A stretch of 64,000 nucleotides of DNA. It comes from Myxococcota bacterium (GTDB taxonomy: Bacteria; Myxococcota_A; SURF-8). The first letter of the stretch is position 1. Every line of letters starts with the position of its first letter. Of the stretch, positions 24,723 to 41,491 are shown one piece after another. Made by a program: the position numbers and the translations under genes. The notes beneath the pieces were generated by a model, which saw only the letters and a list, made by a program, of their open reading frames with translations, was not told the origin of the DNA and did not search any database. The stretch covers positions 5,024,001 to 5,088,000 of the forward strand of contig OZ223209.1 in NCBI GenBank assembly GCA_965140415.1, written 5' to 3'.

Positions 24723-25383
24723 GGATTATCGTCCTAGCGTCTGAAGTTGAAAGGCTCTCGACTGCACTAGCCGCCCCTGCCGGGTGCGGCGCTACAACGA
24801 ATGATCAGTCATCGATCTAGTTTGCTAAACGGTTTGGATCTTTTCGATATTCGACACTCTTTACGGCCTGAATCGCAAGGTGAACCCTTTCGATTCCGCC
24901 CATTTATGAATACGACAGTCTCTGGAAGGCGTCAATAAAAACCTCGACGGCACCCGATGCGGTTTTTGCCTTTCCATTTGGTAAAAAAGCTTTTTCGGTT
25001 AAAAGTGCCGATCGCGGATTTCCACAGCAGCAGGCTTTCTTTCGGATATTGCAAGTGTCCGAACCTGTTGAAATCATACAGTCTGGGCGATTTCCCGGCT
25101 ACCATTCGATTTTCATTCTCCAGCCTTTGGAGATGAAAGTCTTTAATATTTCAGGCATAATCAATCTTACATATTCCACACACGAATAGATCATATAAGT
25201 AAATACAATAACTCACTAAAGGCTTTTTCTTGAGCTTGCCCGGCAACCGTGCAATCATAACTCGCAATGTGTCGGTGTGTTTTTCTGGAGAGGAAAACAC
25301 GTCGCATTCGTAATCTGCCGGGAAATCCCGGAATCAAAACGGTAGTCTCCCCACAACTTGTCAATTGGAACGGAGTGCATGCG

Positions 25384-27129
25384 TTGAAACCGATCAAAGC
25401 CGTTCATCTCGTTTGGATTCTTGGAGTTTGGGCCGTTACGATCGCCTTGGGCGGATGGGTGCTGGGCGAACAGGACAGCGGTGACCAACTTGCCAACCGT
25501 TTCGGTCCAGTCCCCTGGAACCATGAACTTCACGCACGCCAGGCGGTGCGGAATTGTCAGATCTGCCACCACAAGTCCAAAGCAGGCACCAGTGATCCGC
25601 AAGCCTGCTCCGAATGCCATACAAAACCCGACGTTTCCGATTCCATCTTCGCCGTGGCTCCATTAAGAGGAGAAGTCAAGGTTGTACCAGGTGAAAAGAA
25701 ACCCAAGCCGCGCCGGGTCGCTTTTCACAAAAGTTGCCAGGGCTGCCACAAAGCCGTCGGCAAAGGACCGACTTCCTGTCGTGACTGCCACCAGTCCATT
25801 ATGGTTTCCGAAGGCGGCGGTACTAAAATGGAACACATAACCTATGCCGTCGATCACGATCTGGCCTGCACACGCTGTCACGAAGAAAACCGCCCCACGC
25901 TGATTCCCGGCGATGCCTGGGAAGATTGTGCATCCTGCCACGACGGCGCAGGTCATCTGCATCAGGTGTGGCCTGACGATGCAAAATACGATCACAGCGC
26001 CTTGTTTAAAGGAAAAGCCAGCGAGGTAGTCTGGGATCACCGCGCCCATAAATCCTATGAACTCGACGCGGATGGTGAACAGGTGAACTGCCTGAGCTGT
26101 CACCATCAAGAGCAGGATACAGACCCGCAAGAATACCGCAAATGCGGCGACTGCCACAAGGAACGCGACGGAGCCATGCAATTCGACGGCAAAGCGGCGC
26201 CTTCGCGTGCAGATGCTCTACATAAGGTCTGCTTGCGCTGCCACAACGCGCAGAAAGAACAGCCGGAAGAAATACCCGGCAACTGCCATGATTGTCACCG
26301 CACCAGCGCCAGCAATCGTCCCACAGATTTCGGAATCGCCACCTGGTCGCATAACGGTCATGCACAAGGGCTTGGAGACGATTGCACCGTCTGCCACCAT
26401 ACCGATGAGCCAGACAGCGAGACGATGACCGCTTGCCGTTCTTGCCATTTCGAAGCGGAGGCCTCGGATTTCGCTGCGCTGAAGCACAGCACCAATACCA
26501 CTTGTATCACCTGCCACGAGCAGGAATCGGTGGAAGGAATCCCTGCTGCTCAATGGAAAAACATCCAGATTTGCGATGCCTGTCATCAGCCTGTCGGAGC
26601 CGACCGGGAACAAAGCAGAGCCACTTTTGTAAAGAAACATTCCCCGCTGCAACTGAAGAACGTGATTCACGAGCAGTGCTGGGCCTGCCACAAACAGGAA
26701 GGCAAAGGACCGCAGGCCGGAGAATGCCGAGTCTGCCACGCACTGCCGCGCAGCCGTCAGATGGTGCTGCAATACGGCGACGATTCCCAGCCGCTTAAAG
26801 AGAAGCTGAATCATCTGGCACCCGACACCTACAACACGCATCGCTTGCACGTCGATGCAGGCGGCTTCCCCTGTGCGGATTGCCACCACAACATGAAACC
26901 GAGCGAGGAAGTCACGCAAAAACTGGCGAAGCTGGTCATTCCGGAAGGTAAAAACTGCAACAGCTTGCAGGCCAAAGCGGATGACTGTCTGCCGGGCAAG
27001 ACAGCCCCGCAGCACTGCGCCAACTGCCACGACAATCCCGAGCTTTCCCTGCCACAGGCGGTGACGGTGCGCAAAACGTTGTGCAACGACTGCCACACGG
27101 AGTTCGGTCTGGAAGCCCCCGTGAAATAA
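25384..27129 (+). CDS. Periplasmic multiheme cytochrome c (class III / c3-like repeats) with 19 CxxCH motifs
   Basis: 19 CxxCH counted; c3-type W(N/D/S)HxxH...CxxCHH modules; N-terminal hydrophobic segment. TTG start after GGAG (the ORF is open from 25267). Confidence 0.92.
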   Translation: MKPIKAVHLVWILGVWAVTIALGGWVLGEQDSGDQLANRFGPVPWNHELHARQAVRNCQICHHKSKAGTSDPQACSECHTKPDVSDSIFAVAPLRGEVKVVPGEKKPKPRRVAFHKSCQGCHKAVGKGPTSCRDCHQSIMVSEGGGTKMEHITYAVDHDLACTRCHEENRPTLIPGDAWEDCASCHDGAGHLHQVWPDDAKYDHSALFKGKASEVVWDHRAHKSYELDADGEQVNCLSCHHQEQDTDPQEYRKCGDCHKERDGAMQFDGKAAPSRADALHKVCLRCHNAQKEQPEEIPGNCHDCHRTSASNRPTDFGIATWSHNGHAQGLGDDCTVCHHTDEPDSETMTACRSCHFEAEASDFAALKHSTNTTCITCHEQESVEGIPAAQWKNIQICDACHQPVGADREQSRATFVKKHSPLQLKNVIHEQCWACHKQEGKGPQAGECRVCHALPRSRQMVLQYGDDSQPLKEKLNHLAPDTYNTHRLHVDAGGFPCADCHHNMKPSEEVTQKLAKLVIPEGKNCNSLQAKADDCLPGKTAPQHCANCHDNPELSLPQAVTVRKTLCNDCHTEFGLEAPVK

Positions 27130-29997: not shown

Positions 29998-32109
29998 CTA
30001 CTCGAAGGGATCAACGGTGTGGTGCATGACTTCGTCCATGGTGGTCAATCCCTCTTTAACCTTGGATAAACCGTATTCACGCAAAGTCATGAAACCGTCT
30101 TCACGCGCCTGCAACAGCATTTCTTCTTCAGTGGCGCGCTCGATAATCATGCGCCGCAGAACACGATTGACATTCAGGTATTCGTAAAAACCCAGACGGC
30201 CTTTGTACCCACGCTGATTGCAGCGATCGCAACCGGTTCCATGAGTGAACGTGTACCCGCTACGCTCGTGTGCCGGAATCATGGCCATCAGTTTTTTGTT
30301 CGGAGTATATTCCTCAACGCAATTCGAACAGATGCGCCGCGCCAGTCGCTGGTTCATAACCGCCAACAGGGTATCCGCAACCATGAAAGGTTCGATTCCC
30401 ATATTGACCAAACGAGCAATCGTAGCAACGGAAGTGTTGGTATGCAGGGTGCTTAACACCAAGTGGCCCGTCTGGCTGGCTTTGATTGCCAGCCCCGCCG
30501 TTTCCAGATCGCGGATTTCGCCGACCAGAATAATGTCCGGATCCTGACGCAGCAGGGCTTTCAAAATCCTGGGGAAGGTCAACCCGACCTTTTCGCTCAA
30601 CTGCGACTGGTTCAATCCCTCCAGTTTGTATTCGATCGGATCTTCGGCGGTGCTGATGTTCATCTCTTTGCCGCGCGTCTCCAGCAGGTAAATGAGCGAA
30701 GAGTACAGCGTCGTCGATTTACCGGAGCCGGTCGGCCCGGTGATCAGCACCATGCCCTGCGGGCGCGTGATTTTATCGATGTAGCTTTCCAGAATGGGTT
30801 CCGGCAAGCCGATCATGTCCAGTGACAGATCGTGCAGCTTGTTGCTGTCCAGAATACGCAGAACGATTTTTTCGTTGCCGCTGGCAGGCAGGGTGCTGAC
30901 ACGGAAATCCATCACGCCGTGACCTTCGATGCCCAGGCGGATGTTGCCGTCCTGAGGAACACGTCGTTCGGAGATATCCAACTCGGACATAATCTTGAAA
31001 CGCGACACCACCGCCGGGTAATCTTCCGTGCTGATCCAGCCGCCTTCCTGCAACAAGCCGTCCACGCGGTAACGTACACGCGGCACTTCGCCATATTCCA
31101 CGTGAATATCGCTGGCACCCAACTTGACGCCATCGTAGATGATTTTATCGACGATGCGCGAGATGTAGTTGTCTTCCTTGCCACGCTTGATGGCGTCGGA
31201 ATCGACGTTTTCCTCGTCCGGTACGGTCAGCACCGTGATGCGGTCGCCCGATTCCGGTTGAATTTCAGCGGCCTTGGTTTTTTGTATTTCGCTGATCAAA
31301 TGTTTTAACAGCGATTTATCGAAATTCCCGACCGGGCGCACTTTGCCGACGTTGAAAATGGCGGCGAGTTCATCGAGCTTGAACAGATCGGCGTCGTTTT
31401 CGATGTACACTTCCAATGTACGCATGCCGCGATCTTCAATGATGCGTAACGGGAAGAAAAGTTCCTTTTCAAGCCGCGAGAGTTTCAGTCGGTCGCTCAA
31501 ACTGAAGTTGATGAACTGTCCGACTTCCGTCAGATCGGAATTGCCGCTTTGCAGTTGTCCCATCAAGGCTTTCACGAGCAAGCCGTATTTATCGTTGGAA
31601 ATCAGGTTAAGTTGGGCTAATAACGCCCCGATCTTCTTGTCGCGCGCATGATCGGCCTGGTATTTCAATGCATAATCCAGATCGGCACGTGTAATCACAC
31701 CGTGCTTGATCAGGATTTCACCGATCGGCTGCTTTTTCTTGAACAGACTCGGTTTCTGCTCCGCCGGTGGCGCTTCGGTGTCAGCTTTTTCTTCTTTCTC
31801 GGCCTTTTCCTGCTCTTCCGGTAGAGGAGGTGGTAATTCCAGTTCATCCGGCAAGGGTGGCGGCGTTTCTTCTTCAGGCAGGGGAGGAGGCTCCGGCGGC
31901 AGTTCTCCTTCGGTGAGCAGCGTCAATGCGGGATCATACCCCGGTTGCTCCTCTTCTTCCTCTTCCACCGGTTGCCCCGGCACTTCGGTTTTGGACAAGA
32001 TTTCGTTGGCTACCGAACGCAGCAGCGATTGATCCAGGCCTTTGCGACGGATCTTTTTATTCCCGAGTGGAGAACCTTTTTTATCCGAAGGGGTGTCACC
32101 CATTTGCAC
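29998..32109 (-). CDS. GspE/PilB family secretion or pilus-assembly ATPase
   Basis: ASDIHVE, PQDG, GPTGSGKSTT, EDPIE, LRQDPDIILVGEIRD, TGHLVLSTLHTN, tetracysteine motif and an MshEN-like segment. Confidence 0.93.
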   Translation of the reverse strand: MQMGDTPSDKKGSPLGNKKIRRKGLDQSLLRSVANEILSKTEVPGQPVEEEEEEQPGYDPALTLLTEGELPPEPPPLPEEETPPPLPDELELPPPLPEEQEKAEKEEKADTEAPPAEQKPSLFKKKQPIGEILIKHGVITRADLDYALKYQADHARDKKIGALLAQLNLISNDKYGLLVKALMGQLQSGNSDLTEVGQFINFSLSDRLKLSRLEKELFFPLRIIEDRGMRTLEVYIENDADLFKLDELAAIFNVGKVRPVGNFDKSLLKHLISEIQKTKAAEIQPESGDRITVLTVPDEENVDSDAIKRGKEDNYISRIVDKIIYDGVKLGASDIHVEYGEVPRVRYRVDGLLQEGGWISTEDYPAVVSRFKIMSELDISERRVPQDGNIRLGIEGHGVMDFRVSTLPASGNEKIVLRILDSNKLHDLSLDMIGLPEPILESYIDKITRPQGMVLITGPTGSGKSTTLYSSLIYLLETRGKEMNISTAEDPIEYKLEGLNQSQLSEKVGLTFPRILKALLRQDPDIILVGEIRDLETAGLAIKASQTGHLVLSTLHTNTSVATIARLVNMGIEPFMVADTLLAVMNQRLARRICSNCVEEYTPNKKLMAMIPAHERSGYTFTHGTGCDRCNQRGYKGRLGFYEYLNVNRVLRRMIIERATEEEMLLQAREDGFMTLREYGLSKVKEGLTTMDEVMHHTVDPFE

Positions 32110-33599: not shown

Positions 33600-34738
33600 T
33601 TATTCCGGCAGACCCGCCCAGTCCGGGAAAATCACATGCGCCATCTCATTGAAGATTTTATCCGCCAAGATAGGGCCCTGTTCGCAAACCAGATAGCCAT
33701 TGGCAAACACCACGATATCGACGTCACGTACGTGAAACATTACGGTCGTGTAACCGGGAATGGCTCCGGTGTGTCCAACCGCGTCTGGAAGACAACCCAG
33801 CCCCAGGCCATATCCGGCACCAGGAATCGACGCGTCCATATTATCGCAGATCAACCGATCCGTGTGCAACGGCTCCTGCAATAACCTGCTGTCCGTCAGT
33901 TCGTCCAGCCAGACCAGCAGATCGGATAAACTCGAAACAAAACCGCCCGCCGACCAGAATGCGGATGGATGCAGCCGGGTCATGTCTTCCGGTTTTGAAA
34001 GCTACAGGCATCCGTAAACGCCAGATATCCCTTTGCATAGTCGCCGGGAATCTCGGTGTCCGTCGGCAATGACGTATCCGATAACCCCAGCGGCTCCAGT
34101 ATGCGCTGTCGAACAAACGTCCCGTAGGACATTCCCGAGACCTGCTCCACGATCAGTCCCAGCGTGATGTAATTCGAGTTGCTGTAGCTTGCTCCCTCTC
34201 CGGGAGTGAATAGCAACTCGTTTGCATTGGCCACAGTCAACAATTGTTCGGGTTGCCAGGATTGACTGATATCCTCATAGAACTCGTCGAACCAGTCTTC
34301 GTTGGTGGCGTAATCGACGAGACCGCTGGAATGCTCCAGGAGCATCTTCACGGTAATATCGCTGCCGCGAGCGAGCAGTCCGGGAACCAGGCTCTCCACC
34401 GTATCCTCCAGCGACAGCTTCCCGTCCTGAACCAGCAGCAGAATCGCTTCCCCGGTAAAGGTTTTGGATACGCTACCGATGCGAAACAGCATCTCTACGG
34501 AAAGCGGAGTCTCCGTCTCCAGATCGGCCAAACCGTAGGCCGCCGTCCAACTGGAGCCGTCGTTAAATCGCACCAGCGCCATGGCTCCTGGAAAATCATA
34601 TAAAGCAGCGGCCTGTTCCATCGATTGCTGCAACTGTGAACCAAGACGCTCGGCCTCGGTCATCGATTCATCCGTATCGCAGGCGGTAAGTGAAACAAGC
34701 GCAAACCACATCGAGATGCCAATCAACAGTACTTTCAT
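33600..34738 (-). pseudogene. Serine hydrolase (class C beta-lactamase / D-Ala-D-Ala peptidase family) lipoprotein split by a frameshift near 33984-34001
   Basis: The 5' ORF has the lipobox LTAC, FRIGSVSK and YSNSNY. The 3' ORF in another frame has WSAGGFVS, YGLG and GHTGAIPGY. Confidence 0.8.
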
Positions 34739-37911: not shown

Positions 37912-38511
37912 TCAGCGCCAGATCTGCGGCGACTCCAACTCATCGTTGGTCAGCGACGTCAAGACATGGTCCTGCCACTCTCCATTAATGTATAGATACT
38001 TGCGAGCCGTGCCTTCTGCAATAAATCCTAGTTTTTTCAGAAGGTTACCGGAACGAGTATTGTGAGGAACGTGGTTGGCCATAATACGATGCAGTTTCAT
38101 GGTATCAAACACATAACGGATTGCGGGCTGGATAGCCTCGTACATCAGCTGCTGCCCTTGATAATCTTTATCTAGGTTGTAACCCATATAGCAAGACTGA
38201 AACGCCCCACGTACAATTTCCGTAAAGGTCAACGTTCCGATGATCGGTCGCTCGGGATCGTCCTTGGGGTACAGTCCCAACCAGATGAAATGATTCCGTT
38301 TAAACTCTCCAAGGGCTGCGGCAAGGAATTCCCGCCAGAAAGTTTCCGTATAGAAATCCGCCGCTCTCGGCGGCGACCACGGCGCTAAATGCTCCTTGTT
38401 GCGCTGGAAGAAATCCAGCATCCGCCCGGCATGTTGCGGTTCGGGAATCGTGACAATCAGTCGTTCGGTACGAAAAACAGGTCGCTCGATTGTGGAATAG
38501 GGGTAGCTCAT
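37912..38511 (-). CDS. rimJ: RimJ-like GNAT N-acetyltransferase
   Basis: HLAPWSP, IVRGAFQSCYMGY, LHRIMAN and YLYINGEWQDHVLTSL. Confidence 0.85.
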   Translation of the reverse strand: MSYPYSTIERPVFRTERLIVTIPEPQHAGRMLDFFQRNKEHLAPWSPPRAADFYTETFWREFLAAALGEFKRNHFIWLGLYPKDDPERPIIGTLTFTEIVRGAFQSCYMGYNLDKDYQGQQLMYEAIQPAIRYVFDTMKLHRIMANHVPHNTRSGNLLKKLGFIAEGTARKYLYINGEWQDHVLTSLTNDELESPQIWR

Positions 38512-39327
38512 CCGATTCCCTTGGCTAATCGGCTGGAAGTGAATGTTCCTCTTACTACCATTTTGCCTGCGCCGTAAGCAGACTGTTCTATTCCTATACG
38601 TTTTACTAGCGTGCTCTTTTTGTCAAGAGAATATAGCGGGAATCCACAGAACGAGACCCACTCAGGCATTTTGGCATCCTGGCATCATCTCTTTTCATTC
38701 TCACGATTTCCAATTGAAATGCCCTCGATCACTCGTTTTTGAGGTGAAAATGACCATGTGTTGCGGCAATTGCAACGCTTTTTTTAACTAGTAAGTCGCT
38801 CTCAAACTTTTGTTGTCCACTATTTCAGGACAAACATATCACATTGTATTTACAGCCTTTTTCTAGTACTCTGATTGTCATTCCACGTCATATTTCGATA
38901 AATTCAATCCAGATTACCCCAGAGTATACAAGTGTTGCAAAACATGTGTTGCGCAGCCATCCAGAATGCGTTGCGTCATAATGCTGGTAATTTTCACTAT
39001 GATATCATTGCCTTATAAACACTTCATACCTTACATTGTCGCAAGAGCGCATTATTTGCGCTTTTTTGGTCATTTTTCTGGGTGATTTTCTGAGTGAGGC
39101 TTCATCCATTTTCTTGGAATAGCCACTTTTATTTCTATAATTTGTGAAATCAAAACAACATCACCGCCTGTTGCTGTGCAACAGGTGCGCAGGTTTTACG
39201 TTTTACGTTTTGTCAAGAGTTTCAGTCACATGCCAGGATATTACCGATGCCAGCCAGCGTCCATTTATAACATTTTGGAATACCTGCCTGCTGTAGACGA
39301 GAATGGGGTGATTCTCATTGTGAAAAG

Positions 39328-39344
39328 TTGGCATGCAGATTGCT
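39328..39344 (+). promoter_or_regulatory. Putative sigma54 (-24/-12) promoter
   Basis: TTGGCATGCAGATTGCT has GG-N10-GC spacing. Upstream inverted repeat CCTGTTGC-TGT-GCAACAGG (39167-39185) and further TGTTGC motifs. Confidence 0.7.
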
Positions 39345-39354
39345 TATTCTTCTA

Positions 39355-39960
39355 CTCGTTGTTTGTCGAAGGATCTCTGACAACGTAACCCATCCGCCAG
39401 TAGTAGTTGGCGGCTAGTGGAGATTTCGGGAAGCCGGAGTGGGAGTTGCTCAGGTTGATGCTCTGGTTGGTACTCAGGTTGTAGTTGGTTGTAATGTAGT
39501 TGCTCATTTTGATGTCATGTTCCCGTTTGCCTGGTCCGGCTTCCCTTTAAATTTCCTCTCGACTCAACATAGGAGTAACGGCAACATGAAAGCAGTCTTC
39601 GAATTATTCTCAACGATTTTCAAAGAGAACATGAAATTCTGGTTCTCTTCGATCTTCGAAGAAAAGCGCGGTTAAAAGGCCTATCGGCATTTTCGGCTTT
39701 CTCTATGGATCTCCGAACTGAACTTCTAGCTTTCTTTCCTGGAAGAGTAATTTCTTCTGTACATCACATCCCAAGTGATACGCGTCAATTCTCAATCTAT
39801 CCCTCTGCTATAGAGAAAGCCGTAGATTTTTCTACGCAAGTGTAAAACCCCTTTAACACTTACATATAAATCGTGCGTTAAGGCACGATACACCCGATTC
39901 CCAATCGGGGTCGCCTTGGTTTTTCAAAAACCGGCGGCCTCGTCCTTTTCGCATTTTCTC
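39355..39960 (+). ncRNA. Candidate large structured RNA of unknown family, containing an sORF
   Basis: Two long-range perfect stems (11 bp and 13 bp) and at least 7 local hairpins directly downstream of the sigma54 motif. Confidence 0.5.
39586..39675 (+). CDS. 29-aa small protein MKAVFELFSTIFKENMKFWFSSIFEEKRG
   Basis: AGGAG Shine-Dalgarno at 39571-39575; internally repeated amphipathic sequence. Confidence 0.55.
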   Translation: MKAVFELFSTIFKENMKFWFSSIFEEKRG

Positions 39961-40270
39961 TGTAATAACAATATATTAACTATATCTATGAGAAGCATGT
40001 GGGGTCTTGTCTGTTATTAAAGACCGCAAGATAGGTGCAAGCAATCTATAACTACTCTTCTGCCAGCCCCTCTTTTTTCAGACAAAATGTAAACCGCAAC
40101 TGTCAGAAAACAAATCCGAAAAAAGTGAAAATCTTCTAGTAGGAAAGAAAGCTTTTCAAGCCAACCTAAAATCTGTTACACTTCCCCCGCCAATTTACGT
40201 TGAGTGCCAATCGAATTCGACTTGCAGTTTAGGTGCGAAATTCACGCAATGCCTGCCAGTCGCATGAACC

Positions 40271-41491
40271 ATGGAATGGATAAATGGAGATTTACCGATG
40301 ATCCTACGGTTTGCTCACATGCTCTGCCTGTCTATACTGGTGTTATTATTAATGAATACATGGAGTTGGGCGCAGGAGAACTCGGAAGTCCTTCCGGCGC
40401 AAGCAGAAGAAACAGCAAAAGCCGCTGCCGATGCTCCCGAGACCGATGCTGCCACAACGACTGATTCCGGGACTGAAAATGCGGCTGCAACGGCTGATAC
40501 GCAAGAAAGCACCACGACCGAAACTACTGCGGCGGCGGAAGTGGAAGCCAGTCCGCAAAAGACCGAATCCAACACGGAAACGACCACAAACGCGCCGGTA
40601 AATACACCCGTTGATACACAAGAAGCACAGGACGTTTCCGAGGCTGGGACAAAGGCGACCGGTAAACAACCGCTAAAAGCACGTAACGACACGCAAACGA
40701 CCAGTGAACAAGCTCCGGTTGCCGGTCAGAATATGACCGAACCAGCCACAGAAACGACCGAAACCGCACCGGAAGCGGCGGAAACCACCAACACGGAAGC
40801 TACTCCCGTTGCTCCCGCAGCAGCCGAAGAAAGCTCTCCTTCCGAAACGACACCACCACCGGCAACCGCAGAAGCCACTAAAACGGAAGCAGCACCCGTA
40901 GCAGAAGAAGACGAGGATGAAGAGGACGAAGACGGTGAAGAAGAGGAAAAAGTTCCCGGCAGCCAGATTCGTTTTTCAATCGTCGGCGGTGGCCTGGTTC
41001 CCGTTAAAGGCGGCAAGGCGGGTTTCGCGGTCGGAGGTCATTTGGGATATGAATTCGGCGGCGACTTGAAGAATCTGAGTATTGAATTGTTTTTATACCA
41101 GGGTTGGAACGATAGCAACGAACTACTGGAAAAACCGGGCGAAAATCTGGATAAAACCCGCAAAGGGTTGAAGTTGCTGGCTTTCGCTCCGGGTGTACGC
41201 TATCGCGTGTATGGCGAGCGCTTCCGCGTGTATCTCTCCGGGCATATCGGTTTATCATACGCTACCTATACGCTGCCGGGGGATTCCGGTACTTCCAAAG
41301 AAGGCTTGGCGGCGGATCTGGGCGGCGGCATCGAGTATCAGCTTTCCGACATGTTCCACATCGATATCACTGCCGCCTACGCTTTCCATGCACTGAACAT
41401 TCCGATCATCGAAGGCAGTGCCAATAACAAAGGCAGCTACCTGCACGGTCTGTTCGTCGGCGCGGGAATCGGGTTGAAAACAGATCTGTAA
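40271..41491 (+). CDS. Outer-membrane beta-barrel (OmpA-like membrane domain) with a long Ala/Thr/Glu-rich N-terminal tract
   Basis: Signal peptide (SWA/Q), about 190-aa low-complexity region, then amphipathic strands (GGHLGYEF, PGVRYRV, DLGGGIEY). Confidence 0.7.
   Translation: MEWINGDLPMILRFAHMLCLSILVLLLMNTWSWAQENSEVLPAQAEETAKAAADAPETDAATTTDSGTENAAATADTQESTTTETTAAAEVEASPQKTESNTETTTNAPVNTPVDTQEAQDVSEAGTKATGKQPLKARNDTQTTSEQAPVAGQNMTEPATETTETAPEAAETTNTEATPVAPAAAEESSPSETTPPPATAEATKTEAAPVAEEDEDEEDEDGEEEEKVPGSQIRFSIVGGGLVPVKGGKAGFAVGGHLGYEFGGDLKNLSIELFLYQGWNDSNELLEKPGENLDKTRKGLKLLAFAPGVRYRVYGERFRVYLSGHIGLSYATYTLPGDSGTSKEGLAADLGGGIEYQLSDMFHIDITAAYAFHALNIPIIEGSANNKGSYLHGLFVGAGIGLKTDL

Follow-up and report, generated by a model that had tools for sequence, protein, structure and literature searches.

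A sigma-54-linked small-protein RNA conserved within a class of Myxococcota

In the genome of a Myxococcota bacterium (GenBank assembly GCA_965140415.1, contig OZ223209.1), from which a window of 64,000 nucleotides was analysed, a gap of 1759 bp (38512-40270; positions are those of the window) separates the gene of a GNAT acetyltransferase from that of an outer-membrane protein (OMP), and contains a unit that belongs to a real and new family of sigma-54-linked small-protein RNAs, with no described family matching it. With a probability of about one half, this unit is a gene in its own right, dependent on sigma-54, for a structured RNA of ~0.45-0.6 kb, the main product of which is a conserved helical small protein of 27-30 residues. 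The unit consists of a promoter motif, two long-range paired clamps (S1 and S2) and, between them, a short open reading frame (sORF), as listed in Table 1. The ~930 bp lying 3' of the promoter motif hold no normal-sized open reading frame (ORF) on the plus strand up to the OMP_b-brl gene at 40271. The G+C content of the gap is 37-47% against a genome average of 52%, and its sequence is unique within the 5.98-Mb genome, a single occurrence by which a repeat family was ruled out.

Table 1. Positions of the unit, of its parts and of the genes bordering the gap
Feature	Position	Strand	Remarks
GNAT acetyltransferase gene	37912-38511	-	5' border of gap
Sigma-54 type promoter, TGGCAY-N5-TTGCW	39329-39344	+	-24 GG / -12 GC; predicted start near 39355-39357
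Small hairpin TTGTC/GACAA	39363-39383	+	in minimum-free-energy fold
Leader hairpin	39394-39413	+	6 bp; in minimum-free-energy fold
Clamp S1, 5' arm	39428-39438	+	perfect 11-nt inverted repeat with 39535-39545
S1 interior	39439-39534	+	G+U-rich, 7 GUUG copies; interior 76-197 nt across 4 genomes
Clamp S1, 3' arm	39535-39545	+	pairs with 39428-39438
Shine-Dalgarno-like AGGAG	39571-39575	+	10 nt 5' of ATG
sORF	39586-39675	+	29 codons and stop; AGGAG 10 nt upstream of ATG
Clamp S2, 5' arm	39694-39708	+	pairs with 39808-39822
Inner hairpin of S2 domain	39741-39759	+	7-8 pairs; 95% of cells paired in 3 genomes
12-nt motif in S2-closed loop	39777-39788	+	10/12 positions identical in 4 genomes
Clamp S2, 3' arm	39808-39822	+	short U run 4-7 nt later in 4/4 genomes
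Array of five hairpins	39821-39938	+	source genome only; minimum-free-energy fold
OMP_b-brl outer-membrane beta-barrel gene	40271-41491	+	3' border of gap

The unit in four genomes and its small protein

A homologous layout was seen upstream of the OMP homologue in G001, a genome from the same family but from another genus. The sequences of the source genome (G000) and G001 were then used to build a covariance model of the 3' domain (R1), with which 151 genomes of the phylum were searched. Besides the pair itself, with 177 and 163 bits, two new members were obtained, in G004 (60.9 bits) and G002 (48.1 bits). With a second model (R2), made from the four sequences, all 10 genomes of the class were searched; it placed the unit in four of them, that is, in 4 of the 6 genomes of the family, and returned nothing else credible; the two family genomes with no match are 86% and 79% complete. 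The unit is present in a single copy per genome, the second matches being the reverse strand of the same place. The order of the parts is collinear in all four loci, running from the sigma-54 motif through S1 with its G+U-rich interior, the sORF, the 5' arm of S2, the inner hairpin, the 12-nt motif and the 3' arm of S2 to the U run. Weaker matches, lacking promoter, motif and sORF, were set aside as noise (G048 at 22 bits with R1; G005, G007, G009 and a second place in G001 at 15-20 bits with R2). By blastn no homologue was found for the whole gap in 41 genomes or for the G001 unit in 40, because the DNA is too diverged, and the peptide-pattern scan of genome contigs matched 24 stretches, of which one was confirmed (G001), with no further homologue. 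The exact 19-nt motif had four matches in metagenome contigs, which were unrelated, mostly GC-rich and coding-like, came with neither promoter nor sORF, and were attributed to chance.

An sORF between two large domains, as claimed in the original prediction, is indeed present and is conserved in the four genomes as a protein-coding gene; judged from the comparison of these sequences, it is under selection for its protein. The four encoded peptides, 27-30 residues in length, can be aligned with no internal gap and share a pattern of hydrophobic and polar residues (alignment A7), with conserved charged or polar residues, by inspection, at A7 positions 13-15 and 17. The differences per codon position among the four genomes are 0.54/0.20/0.62, the proportion of nonsynonymous differences (pN) is 0.31-0.44 against a saturated synonymous proportion (pS) of 0.64-0.98, and the frame of the sORF is the only one open in all four. 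Its start lies at +232 to +358 across the four loci; purine-rich equivalents of the Shine-Dalgarno element are found in G001 and G002, and a weak one in G004. In the RNA-library contigs described below, all three substitutions inside the sORF are in the third position and synonymous, for which the chance is ~0.005.

A profile search of 1.84 billion proteins gave a fifth homologue, P0003, of 29 residues, along with the G002 peptide and the mis-started 78-residue call of the window itself, which is the existing gene call and begins inside the leader; the 214-residue repeat protein P0004 was judged a chance match. The homologue search with the natural 52-codon frame returned only the 78-residue call of the window. 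No match for the small protein was found in Pfam, NCBIfam or the sequences of the PDB, and in the AlphaFold2 prediction residues 3-29 form one helix, with a mean pLDDT (predicted local distance difference test) of 83. Two other coding possibilities were rejected by inspection, neither frame nor sequence being conserved: that the sORF has an upstream ORF or is extended in frame, and that an ORF begins at the ATG after S2.

Promoter, paired domains and library contigs

The -24/-12 motif claimed at 39328-39344 is present, although it begins one base later, and as a part of the unit it is kept in motif and spacing in all four homologues, lying 98-103 nt 5' of clamp S1. In the whole source genome the pattern TGGCAY-N5-TTGCW has 32 sites against ~11 expected from base composition, 20 of them within the ~10% of the genome that lies outside crude ORFs. 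A crude gene start within 100 nt follows 12 of these 20 intergenic sites, and an ATG-started ORF 57-89 nt downstream follows 5 further ones, one pilin-like and one MotA-like gene included. The site at 39329 is one of the three intergenic sites with no close gene start, the first Shine-Dalgarno-led ORF being 257 nt downstream. The source genome contains rpoN (a 514-residue frame matching Sigma54_DBD with 223.6 bits). In the AT-rich region of 800 bp upstream of the motif, palindromes of the TGTTGC...GCAACA type and direct repeats are seen at 38758-38778, 38932-38952 and 39168-39186, as well as at L007 3759-3735 and 3646-3622 (minus strand). The palindromes occur in G000 and G001 only, G001 sharing one 12-nt stretch; G004 has half-sites and G002 none. 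They could be activator binding sites or another RNA hairpin.

The perfect long-range stems of 11 and 13 bp that had been proposed are both present, and both clamps are kept by compensatory changes across the four genomes. In S1, for which the alignment was anchored on an invariant CCGG core, all 11 pairs are formed in every genome (44/44 cells), with three pairs changed on both sides, as compared with 17-28 of 44 cells for slid-partner controls. The second inverted repeat, 39689-39706 with 39810-39827, extends over 18 nt at 89% and includes the perfect 13-mer; clamp S2 has 15 pairs, all of them formed in the four genomes (60/60 cells), with both sides changed in four pairs and a G-C/G-U switch in two, as against 48-53% of cells when the 3' partner is slid by 1-3 columns, and it is predicted independently by RNAalifold. 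S2 begins 7-26 nt 3' of the stop codon of the sORF across the four loci. On the other strand the G-U pairs (of S2 in G000 and G001, and of S1 in G002) would turn into A-C mismatches, and therefore the plus strand is indicated, with which promoter and sORF agree.

The S1 interior is not alignable across the four genomes apart from its enrichment in GTTG, found 7 times in the source genome as compared with 1.6 in shuffled sequence, of which 2 in 2000 attain this number, and 3, 6 and 5 times in the other three against 0.8, 1.3 and 1.1, respectively. Inside S2, the sequence around the 12-nt motif is otherwise diverged, and at the position of the inner hairpin G002 has a different hairpin within an insertion. 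The two small hairpins predicted upstream of S1 are borne out by the minimum-free-energy fold; by inspection, the second of them, the leader hairpin, has a counterpart of different sequence in G001 and G004, equally placed at +60 to +66 from the promoter, which is unclear in G002.

The five back-to-back 3' hairpins described in the original prediction exist in the source genome, where they are unique, but none is found in the homologous loci of the three relatives; a structured RNA of ~600 nt must accordingly be shortened to a conserved unit of ~0.45-0.57 kb. In the source genome the array is likely the transcript end or an insulation from the OMP gene; two of its five hairpins are terminator-like on the minus strand as well, and 38400-40400 contains 5 terminator-like sites, as compared with 1.8 +/- 1.7 in shuffles.

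That the RNA is of no known family was upheld: at the gathering thresholds of Rfam 15 there are no matches across the whole window, and three sub-threshold matches in the gap do not explain it, the best one (21 bits; threshold 34.1) being located outside the unit. Matching contigs come from four metatranscriptome runs (wetland and aquatic, three studies), one contig each, with lengths of 151-246 nt and identities of 95-100%, at 39375-39525, 39577-39801, 39581-39785 and 39632-39848. Jointly they cover 39375-39525 and about 39556-39848, which coincides with the predicted transcript, and the first of them begins ~20 nt after the predicted start. The stretch is thus present in RNA libraries and its flanks are free of contigs, with none on 39100-39374 or on 39849-40500 (the OMP start included), which is weak evidence of absence.

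Weighing the readings

The most economical account is that of a cis-acting, sigma-54-gated small-protein message. According to it, an enhancer-binding protein would activate the sigma-54 RNA polymerase at the promoter, and transcription would start near 39355. The 230-nt leader would fold into a hairpin and the 11-bp clamp around the GUUG-repeat stretch, a structure that follows from the covariation; the sORF, for which the sequences point to selection as a protein, would then be translated. The 15-bp clamp after the stop codon, whose pairing is established by the same comparison, closes the loop with the 12-nt motif and is followed by the short U run; it may act as a stabiliser and as a 3'-end or attenuation signal. 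The conserved RNA domains would act in cis, setting message stability, translation and read-through into the next gene. The next gene itself varies, which speaks for independence of the unit from any one neighbour. In G000 and G001 it encodes an OMP barrel; in G002 it lies at L026 7429-8766 and encodes a lipoprotein with no Pfam family; in G004 it lies at L025 4807-6753 (minus strand) and encodes a BNR/sortilin-like secreted protein.

A number of findings weigh against this account. No gene of an enhancer-binding protein turned up in the scan of 20 proteins encoded at 25-52 kb of the window, and in the region 5' of the sigma-54 motif there is no site common to all four genomes. With four genomes only, the covariation counts are small, and the alignment A6 was fitted to the model. 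As regards folding, the stretch of 606 nt does beat its shuffles, with z-scores of -4.45 on the plus and -3.86 on the minus strand (20 shuffles each), but the conserved 486-nt core does not stand out (z -1.11, 11 of 100 shuffles folding as well; -1.92 in G001), the strong value of the longer stretch being largely due to the hairpin array of the source genome. The energy of the core is unremarkable, and therefore the case for structure is based on covariation. The cis role of the RNA domains is what we infer; neither the pairing of the 12-nt motif with the leader nor that of the start region with the S1 interior, a candidate suggested by an inverted repeat and rejected, was better than in shuffles in any of the four genomes. 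At the 3' end, the U run stands 4-7 nt from the S2 stem and is not canonical, and no terminator-like site follows S2 in G001, G004 or G002. In all four genomes the gene that follows has the orientation of the unit and an exported product, which fits an operon. Lastly, the contigs carry neither strand nor ends and are no proof of transcription, DNA carry-over being possible.

The hypothesis of a dual-function RNA, in which the 12-nt loop motif would be a base-pairing seed or the GUUG domain would titrate an RNA-binding protein or a small RNA, is less probable and to be regarded as tentative. It stays alive because the GUUG enrichment and the near-invariant loop motif exceed what a plain message needs: the motif has changed far less than the sequence around it and sits in a loop closed by a covarying clamp, and the enrichment persists in four interiors that are otherwise not alignable. 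Besides, a leader of 230-330 nt and a tail of 150 nt are much conserved structure for a message of 29 codons. There are also precedents for small proteins of 28 or 29 residues encoded on regulatory RNAs, namely AzuCR of E. coli, a 164-nt RNA whose AzuC is amphipathic (PMC8915982), and VcdRP of Vibrio cholerae (PMC8672173). As far as these sources describe them, the likeness lies in the size class of the peptide, for which a single helix is predicted here; the small protein shows no sequence similarity in Pfam, NCBIfam or PDB, and base-pairing is demonstrated only for the two earlier RNAs. The complementary sites point the other way, since genomic sites complementary to the motif barely exceed expectation (29 against 11 at 10 nt), are in no case near a crude gene start and provide no target. 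An invariant motif offers no covariation, and GUUG repeats are not known to have a binding protein, which counts against such a role.

Somewhat less probable is that the sigma-54 promoter mainly serves the downstream gene of the exported protein, with the sORF and the clamps as an attenuator-like leader and first cistron of an operon. Such an arrangement would suit the co-directional next gene, which in each of the four genomes has a signal peptide or a lipobox, the divergent upstream gene in all four, the lack of a terminator-like site after S2 in the three relatives and the distance of 131 nt from S2 to the OMP start in G001. However, the downstream genes are of three unrelated kinds; an OMP homologue of G002 stands directly behind another gene, apart from the unit, and the OMP match of G004 is elsewhere as well (96.8 kb versus 939 kb). 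In the source genome the unit and the OMP gene are 450 bp apart, with five hairpins in between, and the RNA-library contigs number four on the unit and none on 39849-40500. In attenuators, moreover, it is unusual for an amphipathic helix to be conserved from genus to genus in the leader peptide. We favour a separate unit, which may be attenuating, over a leader of this kind.

A further extension, which we consider doubtful, combines these elements into a portable sigma-54-gated cassette of RNA and peptide. Its RNA would be bifunctional, the GUUG domain within S1 titrating an RNA-binding protein or a small RNA and the S2 loop motif pairing with targets or recruiting a factor; the helical peptide would act on an envelope protein, and the cassette would be placed before different exported-protein genes in different genera. 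If this were true, the cassette would couple the expression of exported-protein genes to one enhancer-dependent signal.

A type I toxin-like module, that is, a folded and silent mRNA for a small toxic peptide under the control of an antisense RNA, is very improbable. The peptide size of 27-30 residues, the long-range clamps of the mRNA, the tightly gated promoter and the presence of an open frame and of RNA-library cover opposite the leader would be in keeping with it, but the peptide, judged by inspection, is not a hydrophobic membrane-spanning one, having conserved charged residues in its middle, and each genome has one copy of the unit. Neither the length nor the frame of the antisense ORFs is constant (51, 25 and 15 codons, with no equivalent in the fourth genome), and, as already said, the start region pairs no better than shuffles. 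Hardly any credence can be given to the last possibility, in which the real gene would be the ATG-started minus-strand ORF of 51 codons at 39352-39507, or the structure a product of chance in a long spacer: the contig at 39375-39525, with no strand given, covers just that stretch, and the folding z-scores are similar on both strands, but the antisense ORFs of the relatives have 25 and 15 codons or are missing, the clamp arm is, by inspection, read in different frames, there is no Pfam match, and chance structure is excluded because there are four collinear homologues.

Relation to known systems, neighbouring genes and significance

The analogy with RNAIII of Staphylococcus aureus, drawn in the original prediction, is one of architecture: it too is a structured RNA of ~0.5 kb with the gene of a short helical peptide (delta-haemolysin) in its middle and structured domains on both sides. 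RNAIII belongs to a different phylum, with no homology, is transcribed from the quorum-sensing P3 promoter, and its hairpins have known targets, whereas none are known here. CrcZ is a sigma-54-driven small RNA that acts through repeated short motifs, which are A-rich, and the GUUG repeats might act as repeated short motifs too. CrcZ, GlmY/GlmZ and Qrr are non-coding, in contrast to the unit with its protein-coding core. In GlmY/GlmZ (PMC3045617) and Qrr (PMC10162802) it is likewise sigma-54 with an activator that drives a regulator other than an mRNA. The use of sigma-54 for a small RNA within Myxococcota is exemplified by Pxr of Myxococcus xanthus and its relatives, described in the cited account as a non-coding RNA of 108 nt with three stem-loops, encoded between the nla19 activator gene and an NADH dehydrogenase gene (PMC5568312). 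Compared with that account, the unit has 4-5 times the length, contains a conserved sORF as well as its two long-range clamps, and has no activator gene among the neighbours scanned. In size, stem-loops and neighbours it is thus unlike Pxr, and it has no Rfam match, the presence of a Pxr model in Rfam not having been checked. The main text of a 2025 review of dual-function RNAs (PMC12612679) contains no occurrence of RpoN, sigma54 or Myxococc.

Some features of the neighbouring genes were recorded in passing. The OMP protein has a long N-terminal stretch rich in T/A/E/P before its barrel, with an AT skew of up to 0.65 there, and a second ATG at 40299, preceded by a purine-rich stretch and giving a cleaner signal peptide, may be its true start. 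On the minus strand, the adjoining ORFs 33600-33983 and 33980-34738 overlap by 4 nt and match positions 3-197 and 217-305 of the Beta-lactamase Pfam family; the pair looks like a single gene split by a frameshift. A 620-residue multihaem cytochrome with class III / c7 / MtrC-like domains is encoded at 25267-27129, near the gene of a T2SSE ATPase (29998-32109).

The intergenic sigma-54 sites of the source genome at G000:C1:1458813, 5735771, 5115473, 5554912 and 3668763 stand before one pilin-like gene, one MotA-like gene and several small ORFs of 62-140 codons, and the intergenic sites as a set are a first sketch of the sigma-54 regulon of this organism. Outside model bacteria, small proteins and large structured RNAs have hardly been annotated, and one locus offers both here, in a class of Myxococcota that is barely sampled (10 species genomes) and in the form of a peptide gene that gene finders have missed or mis-called. 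In the literature searched, no earlier structured RNA bearing an sORF and having a sigma-54 promoter was found, nor any dual-function RNA dependent on sigma-54, so that this one would be the first. Its expression is apparently strong enough for contigs to have been assembled from wetland and aquatic metatranscriptomes. As promoter, clamps, sORF and motif are all defined, the coding and the RNA functions of the unit are separable by simple mutants.
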